Shown piece by piece: positions 3,019-22,731 of a stretch of 27,486 bases of DNA. This DNA is from a virus. Lineage: Duplodnaviria; Heunggongvirae; Uroviricota; Caudoviricetes. Location: IMG/VR virus record IMGVR_UViG_2909282993_000005, one strand, 5' to 3'. The stretch's first letter is position 1; each line of letters starts with the position of its first letter. The position numbers were made by a program, and so were the translations under genes. The notes under the pieces were generated by a model. The model saw only the letters and a program-made list of their open reading frames with translations. It was not told the origin of the DNA and made no database searches.

Positions 3019-3600
3019 TTACCCTATAGGTGCTACTGGCCATTCAATATCCGGTGCAGTTGTTGTATTAACACGGTTCAGCAACACCCGATACTTCTTC
3101 CAGGCTTCCAGCAACGAGATTTCTTCCTCCGTTGCAATTTCCAGATCTGCAGCATCCTGAAGCGGCGCAATATGCTCACTGGCTACCTGCATCAGGTTGT
3201 TTTTTGTTTCTTCCGCCTCCCGGATCCGGAACAGTTTTTCTGCTTCCGTATCCTTCACCCAGGCTGTGCCGTTCCACTTCTGATATTCCCCTTCCGGCGA
3301 TAACCAGGTGACATTTTCCGGTAACGAGCCAAGTTCAGAAATAAATAACGCGTCGCCGGAAGCCACGTCATAGACGGTTTTTCCCCGATGATCTTCAACG
3401 AGATGCCACGATGCCTCATCACTGTTGAAAACAGCCACAAAGCCAGCCGGAATATCTGGCGGTGCAATATCGGTACTGTTTGCTGGCAGACCTGTATGAG
3501 GCGGAATATATGCGTCACCTTCACCAATAAATTCATTAGTTCCGGCCAGCAGATTATAAATTTTTATGGTCCGTGGTTGTTCACTCATTCTGAATGCCAT
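3019..3600 (-). CDS. Tail fiber assembly protein (Tfa family)
   Basis: 193-aa ORF starting [54 protein letters not shown] and ending [13 protein letters not shown]...IEWP, characteristic of lambdoid TfaQ/TfaR/TfaE proteins. Its start overlaps the stf stop. Confidence 0.85.
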
Positions 3601-4468: not shown

Positions 4469-4762
4469 ATGAAAAAAATGTTGTTTTCTGCCGCTCTGGC
4501 AATGCTTATTACAGGATGTGCTCAACAGACGTTTACTGTTGGAAACAAACCGACAGCAGTAACACCAAAGGAAACCATCACCCATCACTTCTTCGTTTCG
4601 GGAATTGGACAGGAGAAAACTGTTGATGCAGCCAAAATTTGTGGCGGCGCAGAAAATGTTGTTAAAACAGAAACCCAGCAAACATTCGTAAATGGATTGC
4701 TCGGTTTTATTACTTTAGGCATTTATACTCCGCTGGAAGCGCGTGTGTATTGCTCACAATAA
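4469..4762 (+). CDS. bor: Bor lipoprotein (serum-resistance / outer-membrane lipoprotein of lambdoid phages)
   Basis: 97-aa product MKKMLFSAALAMLITGCAQQTFTV...GIYTPLEARVYCSQ with lipobox LITGC and an AGGA RBS. It is on the opposite strand to the lysis genes, as in lambda. Confidence 0.85.
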   Translation: MKKMLFSAALAMLITGCAQQTFTVGNKPTAVTPKETITHHFFVSGIGQEKTVDAAKICGGAENVVKTETQQTFVNGLLGFITLGIYTPLEARVYCSQ

Positions 4763-4852
4763 TTGCATGAGTTGCCCATCGATATGGGCAGCTCTATCTG
4801 CACTGCTCATTAATATACTTCTGGGTTCCTTCCAGTTGTTTTTGCATAGTGA

Positions 4853-5254
4853 TCAGCCTCTCTCTGAGGGTGAAATAATCCCGTTCAGCGGTGTCTGCCA
4901 GTCGGGGGAGGCTGCATTATCCACGCCGGAGGCGGTGGTGGCTTCACGCACTGACTGACAGACTGCTTTGATGTGCAACCGACGACGACCAGCGGCAACA
5001 TCATCACGCAGAGCATCATTTTCAGCTTTCGCATTAGCTAACTCCTTCGTGTATTTTTCATCCAGTGCAGCAACATCACGCTGGCGCATCTGCATGTCAG
5101 TAATTGCCGCGTTCGCCAGCTTCAGTTCTCTGGCATTTTTGTCGCGCTGGGCTTTGTAGGTAATGGCGTTATCACGGTAATGATTAACAGCCCATGACAG
5201 GCAGACGATGATGCAGATAACCAGAGCGGAGATAATCGCGGTTACTCTGTTCAT
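4853..5254 (-). pseudogene. Rz (i-spanin), frameshifted: the Rz N-terminal 117 residues read through into the Rz1 frame and end with the Rz1 C-terminal peptide [16 protein letters not shown]
   Basis: Product [64 protein letters not shown]... is lambda-Rz-like. After ...VDNAASP the frame switches at a G5 run (plus 4904-4908), which lambda-type Rz/Rz1 needs to be one base longer. Confidence 0.65.
4885..5034 (-). pseudogene. Rz1 (o-spanin lipoprotein) embedded in Rz, with altered and truncated C-terminus from the same 1-nt indel
   Basis: Embedded ORF with AAGGAG RBS: [44 protein letters not shown] then TGRHR* in place of the expected [16 protein letters not shown]. Lipobox VVGC present. Confidence 0.55.
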
Positions 5255-5748
5255 TGCTGACCCCACAAACAGATTTCACGCTCAATCTCACGACGAGTCA
5301 TGAGACCTTTCCATTGCTTACCGCCAGCATATGTCCAGCGACGTAGCTGATCACATGCGCCTTTGATATCGCCCTGGTTTATTTTGCGAAGAAGCGTCGA
5401 TGTTCTGAAATTGCCAGCGCCCACGTTGTAAACGAACGAGTAAAGAGCGCCGCGCGTTGTTTCCGGTATATCAACTTTGATGTACGGGTTAATTTGTCTG
5501 GCGACCGTGGCAAGGTCTTTATTCAGGAGGGCTTTGCATTCTGCTTTGGTATACGTTTTACCGAGCATGATGTCTTTTCCTGTATGCCCGTGACATACAG
5601 TCCATACACCAACAATATCTTTGTATGGTATGTAGCTGACACCTTCCAGACCATCGTTACCACTTGGGCCAGTAATTAACACTGATGCTATAGCAATTGC
5701 TCCGCCACCAATAGCAGCAGCAACGGCTTTTCGTAATGATGGAGGCAT
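5251..5748 (-). CDS. SAR endolysin (phage 21-type lysozyme R, T4-lysozyme-like muramidase with N-terminal signal-arrest-release domain)
   Basis: 165-aa product [59 protein letters not shown]... with a Gly/Ala-rich SAR helix followed by the catalytic E-D-T region. Start/stop overlaps with S and Rz. Confidence 0.9.
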
Positions 5749-6214: not shown

Positions 6215-6610
6215 CTAACCTCGCATGTCAAAGCCAGATTTCTGAAAATCTCTGTAGACTTCCGGATTGTTGAAGGCCGGAAATTTGGCTTTATGAGCTG
6301 CGGACTTTATCGCTTCGCAATAGGCTTTATCACCGTTACTGGTAGATATTTTTAACGCCGTGCCATCCTGAGAGAATTCCATATGCAACCTGCATTTTTT
6401 CCCTTTCCAGTTATGCGGCTCATCAAGTTTGGCATTAATTGCAGCTCTGATTCCCCGCGCTTGCGCCCCCCATTCATCCTGATCATCCCAGCGTCCTGAA
6501 CTGCAACTACCTGTAGCAGTAGTTTTGTGGCAATCTGAAGGGTGTAAAGGTGTGCATCCCGCAACAAAACCGACCCAAAAAGTCAACATAACGATTTTCT
6601 TTAATCCCAC
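6215..6610 (-). CDS. Lipoprotein with TolA domain-III-like C-terminus (moron)
   Basis: 131-aa ORF with signal peptide and lipobox (FVAGC). The C-terminus KKCRLHMEFSQDGTALKISTSNGDKAYCEAIKSAAHKAKFPAFNNPEVYRDFQ resembles the TolA C-terminal domain (GKTCTLRIKLAPDGMLLDIKPEGGDPALCQAALAAAKLAKIPKPPSQAVYEVF, from recall). Confidence 0.7.
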   Translation of the reverse strand: MGLKKIVMLTFWVGFVAGCTPLHPSDCHKTTATGSCSSGRWDDQDEWGAQARGIRAAINAKLDEPHNWKGKKCRLHMEFSQDGTALKISTSNGDKAYCEAIKSAAHKAKFPAFNNPEVYRDFQKSGFDMRG

Positions 6611-6760: not shown

Positions 6761-7189
6761 TCAGGGTTTAAAATCCAGCACCCCATTTTGAAATACTTTA
6801 TATACTTCCGGCGAAGGGGGGGCAGGTATATCAGCATTCTTTATCGCATTCATCGCTTCACGACATAAATCGAGGTCTCCACTTTCTCTTTTAACCTCCA
6901 GTAGAAGGCCATTCGGGGCCATATGCATTCTCAGTGTACACTCTTTTCCTGAATACTTACTCGCATCCCCGAACTGTTTTTCGATGGCGCTCTTGATTTG
7001 ATGGGCATACAGACGGATATTCTCACTAACATCAGAAGTACGTTCAGATGAACTCACATACTGTGTCTCTATTGCTTTATCGGAGTAATATGATGTACGG
7101 TCATGATAATTTGTCGATACAGCATCAGTGCACCCGATAATAATCCCACTAATAATCAACGTAAGAATTGATGCGCTACGAAAACCCAT
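6761..7189 (-). CDS. Lipoprotein with TolA domain-III-like C-terminus (paralog of 6215..6610)
   Basis: 142-aa ORF with lipobox (IIIGC). The C-terminus GKECTLRMHMAPNGLLLEVKRESGDLDLCREAMNAIKNADIPAPPSPEVYKVFQNGVLDFKP closely parallels the TolA C-terminal domain and the neighbouring ORF. Confidence 0.7.
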   Translation of the reverse strand: MGFRSASILTLIISGIIIGCTDAVSTNYHDRTSYYSDKAIETQYVSSSERTSDVSENIRLYAHQIKSAIEKQFGDASKYSGKECTLRMHMAPNGLLLEVKRESGDLDLCREAMNAIKNADIPAPPSPEVYKVFQNGVLDFKP

Positions 7190-7306
7190 TTTTCCTCACA
7201 TATGTCATATAGTAAAGGATTATATATACCGTTGTTTTGGACGCTCAAACAGCGAATCAGATCAAATAAAACGCACATTTGTTAACATTTACACAAAGTC
7301 TGCGTG

Positions 7307-7327
7307 GGATATTCTGAAAGAATATCC
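7307..7327. promoter_or_regulatory. 21-bp perfect palindrome ggatattc-tgaaa-gaatatcc (candidate dimeric regulator binding site)
   Basis: Read directly: 8-bp inverted arms around a 5-nt spacer, about 120 bp upstream of the lipoprotein gene start at 7189. No T-run, so not a terminator. Confidence 0.3.
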
Positions 7328-7722
7328 ATAATGTGGAGAGAATCTATTGAAGTGCATGGTGCCGGGTGCCTCCCGGTGAATTCAGTACCAGCACCTGAAT
7401 CCGCGATTATCCCATATACCTACTCGCTGATTGCCCCTCCGCACAGGGGGATTCACCATGCCAGTTTCTTTTAACAAACTCCCCGCAAACCAGAGAACAG
7501 TCAACCGCCTGAATTGTGAAGTATTTAAAAATTTCTCCCGCTAACTGATACCCGGCTAACAGTCTGGCGTTTTCTTTTTCAGCAACGGGAAAGCAACAAC
7601 CACCACACCCGCCACCAGCACACCGTCAGCCAGCACTGACATTATCCGGCTGCTGCAATGCCATTCACAAAAACAGTAAGCAATCACTTTTTACCGTAAC
7701 AGGTGATAATCCAGATATGTAT

Positions 7723-8076
7723 CTACCCCAGATGAGTAATCCGAAGTTCATCCATACCACAGGTCCTGGCTATTCTGTTGTACTCCTGAACAAGAGCAAA
7801 TAATTCTGAATTAGCAACCATGAACTCATCGCAAACCCTCTGTATAGCATCACTATTCAGAAGAATAACGTCTCTTCCCGAAAGACGATCAGGAGTACAG
7901 AACAAAACTGTCAAACGGCTGAAGGCCTTTGCTCGTGCTGCATTGACTATATCAATACGCTGCCTAAGGATGAAACACCCCGACGCCTCATCAATATTCA
8001 CTCTACCCACACCATATGAATGATAAATATTTAATGCTGAAAAAACCATTAGACCGTATAACAAACACTCAATCAA
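7723..8076 (-). CDS. Hypothetical protein (moron between phage tRNAs and lysis cassette); start codon uncertain (TTG at 8076 or internal ATG at 8049)
   Basis: 117-aa ORF with no recognisable motif. Its position matches the accessory slot used by stx in Stx phages. Confidence 0.3.
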   Translation of the reverse strand: MIECLLYGLMVFSALNIYHSYGVGRVNIDEASGCFILRQRIDIVNAARAKAFSRLTVLFCTPDRLSGRDVILLNSDAIQRVCDEFMVANSELFALVQEYNRIARTCGMDELRITHLG

Positions 8077-8186
8077 TACTTAACAGAACTTTTATTTTTG
8101 ACAAACATATAATATTTTCAACAATATCCTGAGCCAGGTATATTCCAGTATAAGGCTCTGCCGGAAGGAATCTGGAAGAATGAATA

Positions 8187-8263
8187 TGGCGCGCTGTACT
8201 GGATTCGAACCAGTAACCGATTGCTTAGAAGGCAATTGCTCTGTCCGGCTGAGCTAACAACGC
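8187..8263 (-). tRNA. tRNA-Arg (anticodon UCU)
   Basis: 77-nt cloverleaf GCGTTGTTAGCTCAGCCGGACAGAGCAATTGCCTTCTAAGCAATCGGTTACTGGTTCGAATCCAGTACAGCGCGCCA. 7-bp acceptor stem, T-loop GGTTCGAATCC, anticodon loop CTTCTAA (U33, anticodon TCT, A37), encoded CCA. Confidence 0.85.
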
Positions 8264-8367
8264 TGAATACCGATAATGGACCGCTATCGGGGACCCGCCC
8301 CCCCCCGCACCAACAACCCTGTTATCGTGTCGTCTGCTCTTCCTGATAAGCTCATGGCGGTTTGTGA

Positions 8368-8443
8368 TGGTGGCCCTTGCTGGATTTGAACCAGCGACCT
8401 GGCGATTATGAGTCGCTCGCTCTCACCACTGAGCTAAAGGGCC
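8368..8443 (-). tRNA. tRNA with CAU anticodon, most similar to tRNA-Ile2 (lysidine type, ileX/ileZ-like); elongator Met not fully excluded
   Basis: 76-nt cloverleaf GGCCCTTTAGCTCAGTGGTGAGAGCGAGCGACTCATAATCGCCAGGTCGCTGGTTCAAATCCAGCAAGGGCCACCA. Anticodon loop CTCATAA; strong resemblance to E. coli ileX from recall. Confidence 0.8.
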
Positions 8444-8481
8444 GGGAGCAGAATAATAACGGTCCGTAATTAATTCCGCAA

Positions 8482-8506
8482 TAAAAAACCCGCTCGGCGG
8501 CGGGTT
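8482..8506 (-). terminator. tR'-like intrinsic terminator between the late promoter region and the tRNA genes
   Basis: Minus-strand RNA AACCCGC-CGCCGA-GCGGGUU followed by UUUUUUAU (7-bp GC-rich stem, then U-run). Confidence 0.45.
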
Positions 8507-8553
8507 GTAGAAACTCTTCTAACGTCAGGCATAAAAAGCCCATCGTTATGATG

Positions 8554-8581
8554 AATTTACCACAGATTTCGGAAAAATCAA
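8554..8581 (-). promoter_or_regulatory. Candidate late promoter pR' (sigma70-like -35 TTGATT, 16-bp spacer, -10 TAAATT) directly downstream of the Q-like gene
   Basis: Hexamers read on the minus strand. The position (Q stop to tR' to tRNAs to lysis genes) matches lambdoid late-operon layout. Short leader of about 60 nt before the terminator. Confidence 0.3.
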
Positions 8582-8586
8582 CCTTG

Positions 8587-9408
8587 TTACCTAGTTACCT
8601 TTTTTAACTGCCGCTCAGCCCATCCTTCTTCAATATCAAACCGGGTCACCAGCGCATCATAGAATTTCTTAACTGTTTTTTCCCATGACGCGCGTGTTAT
8701 CTGGTTTGTCACCTCGCATATAGCATTAAATGCCTCCGTTGATGGTAGTCTTTCATAGCCACGACCACCACAACGCTGGCAGTCTCTGATAACAGGCATA
8801 CCACGTTTTACCGACTCTTCACGGTGAATGGCGACACCACGCCCACGGCAATCCTTACAGGCGGTGGAAACCTCACCCTTTCCGCCACACTCCGGACAGG
8901 CAACTTTTACCACCTCCCTGACTTTTTTCCATTCTTCCCAGTAAGACGGATACACACCTTTCGTACACTTTGCCCATACCGGCGGCTTACCATCCGGATA
9001 CTGGACCTTGTTTGTAAAAACTACGCTTTCAATAAATTTTTCCCCATAGCAACAAGGGCACTGCTTTTTACTCGCTGCGCTGCGGGCATAATCCTCAAAA
9101 GCGTACGAAGCCATAATGCGCATCACTACCGGTTTTATTTCTGCCGGAAGTTTTCTCAACGCCGCCACACGATCGCACCGACTGAGTGCATAATCTGCCA
9201 GTAATTCTGTTGCCCGCGCCCTGTCATTCATACTGATGCCCATTTTCCCCAGGAACGCAGAAAACCCCATCTCAGCCCGATTCTGTGTCATGCCCTGCGC
9301 GGCCATCACATCAGTGATACTCAGCGCATCTTTTGACGTTGAGGCCGATGCATCGGTCAGGCAAGGGGATTTTGGGGAGTAGTATTTCGGTAAATCTTCC
9401 AGTTTCAT
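8587..9408 (-). CDS. Late-gene antiterminator Q-like protein with Cys-rich zinc-finger region (CPCC plus three CxxCxGxG motifs)
   Basis: 273-aa ORF immediately upstream of pR'/tR' and the tRNAs and downstream of rusA, the canonical Q position. Motifs CPECGGKG, CKDCRGRG, CQRCGGRG. Family assignment is by position plus Zn-binding motifs, not verified by search. Confidence 0.55.
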   Translation of the reverse strand: MKLEDLPKYYSPKSPCLTDASASTSKDALSITDVMAAQGMTQNRAEMGFSAFLGKMGISMNDRARATELLADYALSRCDRVAALRKLPAEIKPVVMRIMASYAFEDYARSAASKKQCPCCYGEKFIESVVFTNKVQYPDGKPPVWAKCTKGVYPSYWEEWKKVREVVKVACPECGGKGEVSTACKDCRGRGVAIHREESVKRGMPVIRDCQRCGGRGYERLPSTEAFNAICEVTNQITRASWEKTVKKFYDALVTRFDIEEGWAERQLKKVTR

Positions 9409-11288: not shown

Positions 11289-11444
11289 TTACTCCTCAGG
11301 TTCGTAAACTGTGAAGACAGCGACCTCCGTCTGGCCGGTTCGGATTCGTAACTCGCAGAGGTCTTTCCTCGTTACCAGTGCCGTCACTATGACGGTTAAA
11401 CAGATGACGATCAGGGCGATTAACATCGCCTTTTGCTGCTTCAT
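11289..11444 (-). CDS. hokD: Hok/Gef-family type I toxin (HokD/RelF-like, 51 aa); in-frame upstream extension to 11501 corresponds to a Mok-like reading frame
   Basis: MKQQKAMLIALIVICLTVIVTALVTRKDLCELRIRTGQTEVAVFTVYEPEE, near-identical to HokD/RelF from recall: single TM helix plus conserved C-terminal periplasmic tail. Confidence 0.9.
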   Translation of the reverse strand: MKQQKAMLIALIVICLTVIVTALVTRKDLCELRIRTGQTEVAVFTVYEPEE

Positions 11445-12164
11445 AGCCTGCTTCTCCTTGCCTTTCGGCACGTAAGAGGCTAACCTAGATTTGCCGTTCA
11501 TAGATTGAGCCTCAGATTAATGTTAAGCGTCTTGCAGGACGCGTAATGTTAACTGGGGCTTTTCTCTATCTGCCTTTGGTGTTCATGCCTGAGGCAGATA
11601 GCCTCAAGCACCCGCAGCAATTCTACTTAACTCCCGTCACCTCGCCAATATAAAATCAATCAGAAAGGCGATCCATAAGAACAACAGCAAGACAATAAAT
11701 TGCCATTACAGCCGCAATAGCTAGCGCACATTTGAGAACCAGCACGACAACCTCCTGTATTGGACGTACACCAGTTCTGATAAATATGAGGCTGTCTCAT
11801 CATTGATTCAATATAACTATTGGGTATAGTTTCTGTGATTTTGTTCTGTAGAAATGGAACACAACAACCAGTCACCACCAGCACTTCTTTAAATACGCCA
11901 AGTCCGACGCAAGCTAACCTTCTAGTCCGCTTTGAGCGAGGAGCGGACCAAACCCGGCCAACTGACTCTTAAAGGGGCCGCAGGAATTTTTCGTCTGAAC
12001 TTTCGAAGCTCCTCTCCCTGAAGACAGAAAACTTCTGTGTGCTGTGGGAATATTGAATCTTTGCATTAGATATAAATAATTTTATCCCGCCTGAAGTTTA
12101 CATTATTTTATTTATCTGTTTTTCTAAATCAGACTGCACTCCTTACTTAAATCAGGAGCCAGTC

Positions 12165-22678: not shown

Positions 22679-22731
22679 TTTCTGGTGACGTTTGGCGGTA
22701 TCAGTTTTACTCCGTGACTGCTCTGCCGCCC
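22679..22731 (+). ncRNA. dicF: DicF small RNA (cell-division inhibitor sRNA targeting ftsZ mRNA)
   Basis: 53-nt sequence TTTCTGGTGACGTTTGGCGGTATCAGTTTTACTCCGTGACTGCTCTGCCGCCC matches DicF from recall, followed by a T-run (22732-22736) and preceded by a structured ~300-nt leader. Confidence 0.8.

Follow-up and report, generated by a model that had tools for sequence, protein, structure and literature searches.

In Stx2 phages, the moron slot comprises Q, tRNAs, stxAB, the small RNA (sRNA) gene STnc100, nanS-p, and lysis genes, and STnc100 lies 75 nt after stx2B. STnc100 is present in 11 copies in EDL933, one of which was Northern positive (PMC5331693), and it overlaps the Hfq-bound EcOnc27/sRNA103 of E. 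coli O157:H7 (PMC12711010). It has the same multi-hairpin core as the copy described here and occupies the same place between Q and the lysis genes. The PasD relatives of STnc100 are expressed and Hfq bound (PMC8550237; bioRxiv 10.64898/2026.05.13.724894). PasD1 and PasD2 of EPEC E2348/69 (Pearl Mizrahi 2021; Zhu, Shabalina and Storz 2026 preprint) have a related 5' core beginning GCAUGGUGAAUCC, and their arrangement, in which DUF3927 is followed by the sRNA and then by a moron and the PasD seed is in the linker before the terminal hairpin, resembles that found here. The relatives (EcOnc27/sRNA103 and the PasD cousins) are expressed sRNAs that are bound by Hfq and act by base pairing. Of the protein families found at the present locus, TciB-like/DUF3927 proteins with TerB (TciA-like) upstream are known from phage P1, and phrog_2873 and phrog_4827 consist of phage proteins, with no function attached to either family.

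The window (the whole stretch of DNA analyzed, 27,486 nt) includes the late region of an E. coli lambdoid prophage, which is on the minus strand; genes and signals described below are on that strand unless stated otherwise, and related loci are designated by L numbers. In the direction of transcription, the order was Q, a terminator-like hairpin, two tRNAs, the stretch containing a 92-codon open reading frame (ORF92), TolA-like lipoproteins, a holin, and a lysozyme. PGAP annotated an identical E. coli locus as Q, tRNA-Ile, tRNA-Arg, DUF3927, TolA-like proteins, EssD, RrrD, and RzpD, and the same block was present in phage mEp460. Just 3' of Q, which PGAP annotated as an antitermination protein, a scan identified an intrinsic-terminator-like hairpin (positions 8487 to 8506; 7-bp stem with 5 G-C pairs, followed by TTTTTATT) that was read as a tR'-like site, which Q-modified polymerase would pass to reach the whole stretch. 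The two tRNAs were one with a CAT anticodon (8368 to 8443; Met according to ARAGORN, Ile according to PGAP) and tRNA-Arg (TCT) (8187 to 8263; ARAGORN and Rfam), the latter forming the left boundary of the ORF92 cassette. At the other end of the stretch, the gene for a lipoprotein with a TolA C-terminal domain (7189 to 6761; PF06519, E = 3.6e-23) had a GAGGA Shine-Dalgarno sequence before its ATG and a sigma-70-like promoter (7219 to 7248; TTGAGC-18-TATAAT, 10 of 12 consensus matches).

The intervening segment (7190 to 8186) was very probably a mosaic piece of a late-operon moron slot. The three elements in it are independent of one another, and all belong to kinds already catalogued. The identities, boundaries, and conservation of the features of this locus were established, as were its mosaic junctions; the transcription start, 3' ends, and Hfq dependence of its sRNA allele are what we infer, along with the role of ORF92. 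As a whole the locus is ordinary and mostly catalogued, with nothing in it to surprise a phage or sRNA specialist. The preliminary description had reported an ORF, a palindrome, and a hydrophobic mini-ORF in this segment, and all three were confirmed in the sequence at the positions given below; the gap between the ORF and the lipoprotein gene at 7189, noted there as 530 bp, measured 533 bp.

The 117-codon frame (7723 to 8076) opened at a TTG and contained an internal ATG at 8049. Compared to a 57%-identical homologue (L002), dN/dS was 0.34 overall, 0.26 over codons 26 to 117, and 0.86 over the first 25 codons, and identities at the three codon positions were 0.71, 0.72, and 0.53. Full-length distant homologues were 91 to 95 aa in length, and their first residue aligned to V26; the program-made ORF list gave the L006 copy as 92 aa, opening at a GTG, and ATG 8049 was missing from the L002 homologue. 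Among near-identical E. coli copies (viral scan with a narrow profile), which are uninformative on diversity, single-nucleotide polymorphisms (SNPs) in the ORF92 core were 6 synonymous and 4 nonsynonymous, at a density of 3.2 per 100 nt versus 8 to 10 in the flanks and the minimum of the stretch, and those in the 5' extension (8002 to 8076) were 1 synonymous and 4 to 5 nonsynonymous, with one frameshift. No Shine-Dalgarno sequence preceded TTG 8076 or ATG 8049. Both were rejected as starts in favor of GTG 8001 on the basis of dN/dS, homologue starts, and the SNP pattern, and GTG 8001 itself follows GGGTAGA rather than a good Shine-Dalgarno sequence. By these comparisons the true start is GTG 8001 and the 117-codon call is overextended, with the 25 codons of the extension probably untranslated. 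The predicted coding sequence at 7723 to 8001 (92 aa plus stop), also matched by phrog_2873, is thus judged a real, selectively constrained gene. The ORF of the preliminary description therefore stood as a genuine, uncharacterized accessory gene of the moron slot, at a length of 92 codons and not 117. A consensus scan also placed sigma-70-like hexamers (TTGAAA-16-AAAAAT; 8094 to 8121, 9 of 12 matches, a pattern match only) between tRNA-Arg and ORF92, in a spacer of 32% G+C, where they form a possible promoter of its own for the gene.

The ORF92 product matched phrog_2873 with an E value of 9e-58, and all 10 of the aligned homologues matched the same family, 9 of them matching phrog_4827 as well. 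The phrog_2873 model has 108 positions, including 16 residues of the probably untranslated extension, and its conserved columns (the FSRLTVLFCTPDR loop and the ANxEL..LVxEYNxIA helix) were present in ORF92. Among 1.8 billion proteins, 21 representative homologues were found. An AF2 model (pLDDT, 88.7) placed helices at residues 3 to 34 and 50 to 81 in a two-helix hairpin, and the predicted location of this phrog_2873 protein is the cytoplasm. The preliminary description had seen no motif in the ORF, and this was borne out: there was no Pfam, NCBIfam, or PADLOC match, a PDB sequence profile search gave a best E value of 0.09, and Foldseek comparison of the model with PDB and BFVD returned only generic coiled-coil or helical hairpins (E > 0.1). 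A tblastn search of 50,697 phage records found mEp460 only. Prophages of Citrobacter, Serratia, and Morganella carried homologues at the corresponding site, with Q on one side and the lysis genes on the other, and in total the position was maintained in prophages of at least four genera. The block of ORF92, TerB, DUF3927, and holin was intact in Citrobacter braakii (L007) and in L006, an unplaced metagenome-assembled contig; ORF92 was also found without TerB, DUF3927, or STnc100 and therefore has no constant partner. ORF92 is the first protein-coding gene to follow Q and the tRNAs, and the lysis cassette comes after it. It would be expressed from the late transcript that Q antiterminates, with its own weak promoter perhaps contributing. 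Its product may act by binding another protein rather than DNA, the best candidate for a partner being one of the proteins of the envelope-lysis module (TerB, DUF3927, and holin) that comes next in the intact form; since the fold is generic, both the protein-binding role and the partner are guesses.

The mini-ORF (7556 to 7642) encoded MSVLADGVLVAGVVVVAFPLLKKKTPDC, the second transmembrane helix and KKK tail of a DUF3927 (TciB-like) protein in 28 codons from an ATG (PF13064; phrog_1470, E = 7.8e-13). PGAP called a 43-aa form from GTG 7687, just 35 nt from the ORF92 stop, and this reading matched PF13064 with 95.6 bits (E = 1.7e-27; curated cutoff, 25 bits). The likeness to small membrane peptides seen in the preliminary description was thus well founded, in that the mini-ORF derives from a small-membrane-protein family. 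Full-length E. coli DUF3927 forms are 53 to 57 aa long and start with MTVKMRLAVVALLLFLVVMVDFSSRIMSVLADG. The second helix and basic tail were near-identical to those of these full-length members, whereas TerB and the first transmembrane helix (MTVKMRLAVVALLLFLVVMVDF) were deleted, leaving 28 codons, or 43 from a nonconserved GTG, and one helix in place of the two of a full-length protein. GTG 7687 was GTT in 9 of 72 related loci, and 2 had a stop codon. A TerB-family gene directly upstream of DUF3927 and overlapping its start was present in L006 to L011 and absent here. DNA homology to full-length DUF3927 loci began at 7655 (SSRI), and a blastn map against L008 to L010 placed a mosaic junction at 7655/7656; on the other side, homology to other prophages stopped at 8179, next to tRNA-Arg. 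The ORF92 cassette (8178 to 7656) thereby replaces TerB and about the first 22 DUF3927 codons of related prophages. Recombination or deletion removed TerB and the first helix of a two-helix membrane protein of the DUF3927/TciB-like type, and the mini-ORF is most likely a decaying DUF3927 remnant.

The next element was a full-length STnc100 sRNA gene (RF02076) at 7300 to 7490 (114 bits, model positions 1 to 206 of 206, E = 1.6e-24; gathering score, 47 bits), located between Q and the lysis genes as in L003, L004, and L009. Its minimum free energy (MFE) was -71.1 kcal/mol (z = -3.1), and published STnc_100 quantitative PCR primers matched it exactly. PasD2 scored 41 bits against RF02076 compared to 114 bits for this copy, which is therefore STnc100 proper. 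A PasD identity was rejected on this score difference, the absence of the PasD seed UGUGAG (not found in 7300 to 7360) and of the PasD terminator, and the divergence of the tail, the alignment with PasD2 being lost after the core. Alignment suggested a promoter for the sRNA at 7468 to 7497, consisting of TTCTCT, an 18-nt spacer, and an extended -10 element, TGtTAAAAG; the TT..CT and TTGTnAAAA columns were invariant across five STnc100 copies. The RNA-seq-estimated 5' end of PasD2 (NC_011601:741157) aligned to the G of GCATGGTG, window position 7461, and transcription of STnc100 probably starts near 7461 from this conserved promoter. A TTGACT hexamer (7504 to 7499) was rejected as the -35 element of the sRNA; it is 25 nt from the conserved -10, and TTCTCT with its 18-nt spacer therefore fits better.

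The conserved STnc100 core (7354 to 7461) was delimited by alignments and fold. Its closing stem (GCAUGGUG/CACCAUGC) encloses three hairpins, CCCCC..GGGGG, GGAUUCAG..CUGAAUUC, and CCGGG..CCCGG; the closing stem and the first and last of these were invariant compared to four other copies, and the MFE fold reproduced all of them. The window and majority alleles were near-identical up to about 7354 and unrelated beyond, which in sequence alignment marks the 3' edge of the core as a second mosaic junction. Because of this junction, the tail departs from standard STnc100: the G+C-rich terminator and U tract are replaced by a 9-bp A+U-rich hairpin, and the linker differs too. The variable, C/U-rich linker (ACUUCAAUAGAUUCUCUCCACAUUAU; 7329 to 7352) was single stranded in the fold and lies at the position of the predicted PasD seed, and it may have a seed role; no complementary site was found elsewhere in the window. 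This allele was present in 786 of 5,426 complete E. coli genomes (14%) and was at least 99% identical in 771 of the 786.

The hairpin at the end of this tail is the palindrome of the preliminary description (7307 to 7327), a perfect inverted repeat, GGATATTC-tgaaa-GAATATCC, whose pairing continues to 9 bp, leaving a loop of 3 nt, and which corresponds to the terminal stem of the Rfam model. It had been called upstream of the ORF; in the direction of transcription it is downstream, at +395 from the ORF92 stop, and the canonical stem of sister copies is at +394 in about 55 of 80 loci. The folding energy of the hairpin was -9.5 kcal/mol (z = -4.9), compared to -19.8 for the canonical GCCCCUCUCCGGAGGGGCUUUUUU. 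The window contained 9 perfect hairpins with stems of at least 8 bp versus 2.3 ± 1.7 in shuffled sequences; a single palindrome is therefore not significant alone, and the meaning of this one comes from its position on the terminal stem of the 114-bit match. The terminator scan omitted 7307 to 7327, where 3 of the 9 pairs are G-C and CACGCAGAC follows in place of the U tract of an intrinsic terminator. The 3' end of the sRNA thus has an A+U-rich hairpin at the place of the terminator, followed by a second, imperfect and weak hairpin and UUUAUUU (7264 to 7305, from folds). The latter, which was not called by the consensus terminator scan, is a candidate for the 3' end of this allele or for a weak terminator. 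At the second junction the C/U-rich linker and A+U-rich hairpin took the place of the usual linker and G+C-rich terminator, the new tail arriving with the TolA-lipoprotein cassette. Termination may be weak here, with the RNA ending at the U-rich hairpin at about 7264 or running on as the leader of the lipoprotein mRNA. In such sRNAs, Hfq usually binds the Rho-independent terminator, a G+C-rich stem with a U tract after it. Since the A+U-rich hairpin has no U tract, a discrete sRNA that binds Hfq may not arise from this copy, and the near invariance of the allele means that covariation cannot show the hairpin to be selected as RNA.

Two alternative readings concern the ORFs. The absence of ORF92 from the PGAP calls in both of the inspected RefSeq records and from the deposited mEp460 annotation, which has a short opposite-strand ORF in its place, together with the weak translation signals, could indicate that the 117-codon ORF is a chance frame and that the conserved signal comes from a noncoding element or an opposite-strand gene. 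Third-position divergence and a dN/dS of 0.26 favor coding, however, as do a frame that stays open at 23 to 64% identity across genera, the confident AF2 model, and the existence of a PHROG family; the opposite-strand ORF (7820 to 8023) had no family match. This alternative is very improbable, and ORF92 is treated here as a gene. The 28-aa DUF3927 fragment, for its part, could have a function as a small membrane peptide, for instance as a toxin or in the envelope. It retains an ATG, an intact hydrophobic helix, and the KKK anchor; identical or near-identical 28-aa products are annotated by NCBI on more than a thousand contigs, and among the matches listed these entries are on more contigs than full-length forms are. 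The SNPs in the mini-ORF (4 synonymous to 5 nonsynonymous) were not clearly neutral, but at 10.3 per 100 nt they were as dense as in the noncoding flanks and included L-to-P and G-to-C changes in the helix. The fragment is also without the first helix and original start of the 53- to 57-aa members, and the GGA just 2 nt before its ATG makes a poor ribosome-binding site. No antisense or antitoxin RNA family matched at the mini-ORF; across 7100 to 8600 there was no Rfam antitoxin match even at an E value of ≤1 and no PADLOC match, and no homology to type I toxins (Hok, Ldr, TisB, and Ibs) was found, DUF3927 being the sole family match. A functional peptide may exist, but we consider it somewhat unlikely, and decay of a DUF3927 gene is the reading carried forward.

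The remaining alternatives give the palindrome a role as DNA. The preliminary description had joined the three features into one unit, in which ORF92 would regulate by binding DNA, with the palindrome as its operator, and the hydrophobic mini-ORF would be the small protein under control. The three do share a strand and fit into 900 bp, the palindrome has no mismatch, and in some relatives an AraC-family gene directly upstream of the ORF92 homologue indicates that the neighborhood can be regulatory. Against this, ORF92 matched no DNA-binding family or fold (Pfam, NCBIfam, PDB, and Foldseek), the palindrome comes after both ORFs in the direction of transcription and is part of an sRNA gene, and homologues of other genera had neither the palindrome nor DUF3927. 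The palindrome and ORF92 are on different mosaic segments, and the palindrome was present in only 14 of 80 related loci carrying ORF92; because most ORF92 loci are without it, the regulator-operator reading fails. It is extremely improbable and largely refuted. Alternatively, the palindrome could be a protein-binding site for the TolA-lipoprotein promoter that is only incidentally at the place of the terminator. It shares a mosaic segment with the lipoprotein gene and with the promoter-like site of that gene, whose -35 hexamer is about 60 bp farther downstream. It is also a poor terminator, being A+U rich without a U tract, and is on a segment coinherited in 786 genomes. On the other hand, it is within 1 nt of the canonical terminator stem position of sister alleles, and in the covariance model alignment it forms the terminal helix; the neighboring genes include none for a candidate binding protein, and no palindrome of this kind precedes a different TolA-lipoprotein allele (L004). 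Such a site is improbable, and the palindrome is read as the terminal stem of the STnc100 allele.

Two further readings would extend these results. In the first, ORF92 would represent an overlooked small coiled-coil family, the first protein gene of a Q-dependent late operon in several enterobacterial genera, that tunes lysis or the envelope with TerB, DUF3927, and holin. In the second, the STnc100 core would be a recombination joint at which the seed-and-terminator tail is swapped together with the downstream moron, and this allele would be a terminator-poor form that is also the 5' leader of a TolA-mimic lipoprotein mRNA. These readings are speculative and unlikely.

The value of the locus is mostly one of annotation. 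Over a thousand complete E. coli genomes have copies of the region, yet PGAP missed the 92-aa gene in both RefSeq records that were inspected, and calls of the gene, where there are any, are too long. What is called a 43-aa "DUF3927 family protein" is a remnant that has been truncated, and a pseudo-CDS is drawn over a known sRNA. One common STnc100 allele, found in 14% of complete E. coli genomes, differs in its 3' tail; should the seed lie in the variable tail, as it does in PasD, different targets and termination behavior would be expected for this allele. Compared to Stx2 phages, the architecture is the same, with cargo between phage tRNAs and STnc100 that is read by Q-modified polymerase. 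The cargo here is ORF92 and a DUF3927 remnant rather than Shiga toxin, and TolA-domain lipoproteins come next, in place of the esterase. The locus shows what can fill the Shiga toxin slot of Stx phages in other prophages, and how its contents are reshuffled there.

Although the ORF, the palindrome, and the mini-ORF noted in the 997-bp stretch at 7190-8186 were all present as described, their proposed arrangement as a regulator, operator, and small-protein unit was not borne out. Given the minus-strand orientation of the ORF, the palindrome is downstream of the gene and not upstream. DNA-binding features are lacking in the ORF product, and most loci carrying the ORF do not have the palindrome. 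Rather than forming a single unit, the features belong to three mosaic segments (junctions near 8179, 7655, and 7354), and each is of a catalogued family. Added here are a corrected model of the ORF (designated ORF92), with evidence of its reality and cross-genus conservation; recognition of the PGAP DUF3927 call as an apparent truncated remnant; and a description of a common allele of the small RNA STnc100 with a replaced 3' tail.

The late region of this E. coli lambdoid prophage is on the minus strand. Identical copies of the 997-bp stretch were found in many complete E. coli genomes; some match was present in 3240 of 5426, and at least 80% of the stretch in 1181. In one genome record with an identical stretch, the PGAP order was DUF968, RusA, Q, tRNA-Ile, tRNA-Arg, a DUF3927 family protein, two TolA-C-terminal-domain proteins, EssD holin, RrrD lysozyme, and RzpD. 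This order, the two tRNAs detected by ARAGORN and Rfam (8368-8443 and tRNA-Arg at 8187-8263, both minus strand), a strong terminator-like hairpin directly after the antitermination gene Q (8506-8487; terminator scan), and the presence of the same gene block in phage mEp460 place the stretch in the slot with Q and tRNAs on one side and the lysis cassette on the other. In Stx phages, this slot is filled by stxAB, followed by STnc100 (PMC12370729; PMC12711010).

Other features of the window were also annotated. The CAT-anticodon tRNA at 8368-8443 was called Met by ARAGORN and Ile by PGAP, the latter fitting the expectation for a lysidine-modified tRNA-Ile2 of phage origin. Q (8587-9408, minus strand) contains DnaJ-type CxxCxGxG zinc-finger repeats, with weak TIGR02349 and PF00684 matches, which may account for the "chaperone" annotations of Salmonella Q relatives adjoining STnc100. 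The sRNA is separated from the holin gene by two minus-strand lipoprotein genes whose products carry a TolA C-terminal domain (PF06519; E = 3.6e-23 for 6761-7189 and E = 1.3e-14 for 6215-6610); the former gene has its own sigma-70-like promoter (7248-7219), and the products could serve as decoys for filamentous phages or for colicins that depend on Tol. Further Rfam matches were IS009 (3059-3257, minus strand, 225 bits), DicF (22680-22731, plus strand, 77 bits), and sok antitoxin RNA (11439-11613, minus strand, 112 bits), the last implying a hok/sok-type module.

The absence of a recognized motif in the ORF was confirmed in Pfam, NCBIfam, and PADLOC, and a word-indexed search returned near-identical copies and one pair at 56% identity. 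The ORF matched phrog_2873 (PHROGs) whether read as 117 aa (E = 6e-70) or cut to its last 92 residues (E = 9e-58). Codon alignment with the more diverged copy from this pair (locus L002) gave 65% nucleotide and 57% amino acid identity. Identity at the first, second, and third codon positions was 0.71, 0.72, and 0.53, respectively, and the overall dN/dS was 0.34, a coding signature. The ORF is thus a real gene, although probably not one of 117 aa. The coding signal was limited to codons 26 to 117 (dN/dS of 0.26, versus 0.86 in the first 25 codons). When 1.8 billion representative proteins were searched exhaustively with a profile, 21 relatives were recovered, the full-length ones being 91 to 95 aa long with the first residue aligned to V26. 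The copy on an unplaced metagenome-assembled contig (L006) is listed as a 92-aa ORF from a GTG preceded by AGGAG in a mechanical ORF list. SNPs across 72 related IMG/VR loci numbered 6 synonymous and 4 nonsynonymous in the 279-nt core (3.2 per 100 nt), as against 1 synonymous and 4 nonsynonymous plus a frameshift in the 75-nt 5' extension (8 per 100 nt, matching the 10 per 100 nt of the noncoding flank). On these grounds, we place the gene at 8001..7723 on the minus strand, with a putative GTG start and 92 aa. It was unannotated by PGAP in both RefSeq records inspected and is also missing from the deposited annotation of mEp460, in which a 38-aa ORF annotated antisense to the ORF92 start (L003 3418-3534, minus strand) looks like an artifact.

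An AlphaFold2 model from a 10-sequence alignment was confident (pLDDT, 88.7), with two long helices (residues 3 to 34 and 50 to 81) linked by an invariant TPDR loop. Foldseek against PDB and BFVD returned generic helical hairpins only (E > 0.1), a sequence profile search of PDB gave no match, and none of these (model, Foldseek, profile search) revealed a sign of a DNA-binding fold. A function for ORF92 drawn from position and fold would be a guess.

Position is the constant feature of ORF92: it precedes the lysis genes and comes first among the protein genes of the late operon. In Citrobacter braakii and the metagenome-assembled contig, it is first in the block ORF92-TerB-DUF3927-holin, and homologues with 23 to 26% identity in Morganella morganii and Serratia marcescens prophages sit between Q (with methyltransferase or tRNA genes) and holin and lysozyme genes. 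Two E. coli loci have an AraC-family gene ahead of the ORF92 homologue and STnc100 copies after it. One E. coli homologue is on a plasmid-like contig, after a tRNA. That homologue (L093/L094 4001-4276; 91 aa, 33% identity) is not in a prophage late region and adjoins PapB/usher fimbrial genes, a Rep3 replication gene, and an integrase gene. The AraC-family regulator (PF12833; L002 164-889, L004 3164-3889) precedes the homologue by 21 nt, the two apparently sharing an operon, and presumably resembles the prophage Psr/PatE class of regulators. The L004 locus, an STEC prophage late region, has four STnc100 copies (2575-2787, 4547-4742, 4806-5005, and 5067-5256), three of them in tandem and flanked by the ORF92 homologue and a NanS-type esterase gene.

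The mini-ORF (7556..7642, minus strand) had been likened to small membrane peptides, and its family supports the resemblance: read from GTG 7687 (43 aa, as called by PGAP), it matched PF13064 (DUF3927; 95.6 bits) and phrog_1470, "TciB-like." Full-length E. coli members have 53 to 57 aa and two hydrophobic helices (MTVKMRLAVVALLLFLVVMVDFSSRIMSVLADG...). DNA homology to full-length loci begins at 7655, the SSRI motif; upstream of this point, the relatives have TerB and the first ~22 DUF3927 codons where the window has the ORF92 cassette (8178-7656). Among the 72 related loci, GTG 7687 is GTT in 9, and the 15-codon extension contains a stop codon in 2. The 28 codons had 4 synonymous and 5 nonsynonymous SNPs (10.3 per 100 nt, the density of the noncoding flank). 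A functional 28-aa peptide is possible, and many database DUF3927 entries are exactly this peptide; the simplest reading of the sequence comparison is that the mini-ORF would be a 5'-truncated remnant. Between this remnant and the putative sRNA promoter, a 15-nt deletion polymorphism (7539-7553) occurred in 4 of the 72 loci.

The perfect inverted repeat at 7307-7327 folds, as RNA, into a 9-bp stem capped by a 3-nt loop. The window contains 9 perfect hairpins of this class versus 2.3 ± 1.7 in shuffles, and the palindrome taken alone is not beyond chance. It received no call by the terminator scan. It aligns to the terminal helix of the RF02076 model in a full-length STnc100 copy (7490-7300, minus strand; Rfam, 114 bits versus a gathering score of 47), whose fold has -71 kcal/mol (z = -3.1). 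Other STnc100 copies end in GCCCCTCTCCGGAGGGGC and then T-rich sequence, whereas this copy ends in GGAUAUUCU-UUC-AGAAUAUCC and then CACGCAGAC, with a terminal hairpin of -9.5 versus -19.8 kcal/mol. The canonical stem lies 394 nt past the ORF92 stop in ~55 of 80 ORF92 loci, and the palindrome lies at +395 in 14. Near identity of the window to the majority allele extends as far as ...CACCGGGAGGCACCCGGCACCATG (about 7354); past this point the two are unrelated, and the window sequence leads directly into the TolA-lipoprotein gene. This allele comparison makes the palindrome the 3' hairpin of a hybrid sRNA gene that acquired its tail along with the downstream cassette. The swapped tail allele occurs in 786 of 5426 complete E. 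coli genomes and is almost invariant. A second, imperfect hairpin (7305-7264) followed by UUUAUUU could be a weak terminator. A PGAP pseudo "hypothetical protein" (7331-7471, plus strand), opposite the sRNA, looks like an artifact.

Relatives of this RNA are expressed: of the 11 STnc100 copies in strain EDL933, most are transcribed and one was confirmed by Northern blotting (PMC5331693), and the copy downstream of stx2B overlaps Hfq-bound EcOnc27/sRNA103 (PMC12711010). STnc100 has been related to the EPEC sRNAs PasD1 and PasD2 in a 2026 preprint (bioRxiv 10.64898/2026.05.13.724894); both are Hfq dependent, with many RIL-seq partners (PMC8550237). The PasD2 locus, retrieved from published coordinates, scored 41 bits against RF02076, under the gathering score, so the window copy, at 114 bits, is assigned to STnc100 proper, and its identification as PasD was rejected. 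In the alignment, the estimated 5' end of PasD2 coincides exactly with the G of GCATGGTGAATCC, window position 7461, and upstream columns (TT..CT and TTGTnAAAA) are invariant among STnc100 copies, which would suit a -35-like hexamer and an extended -10 element separated by an 18-nt spacer. The promoter, transcript ends, and Hfq binding of this allele are inferred, the promoter and 5' end from homology with these relatives. In PasD, the predicted seed is in a variable linker ahead of the terminator; in the window copy, the equivalent linker (7352-7329) is C/U-rich and part of the swapped-in tail.
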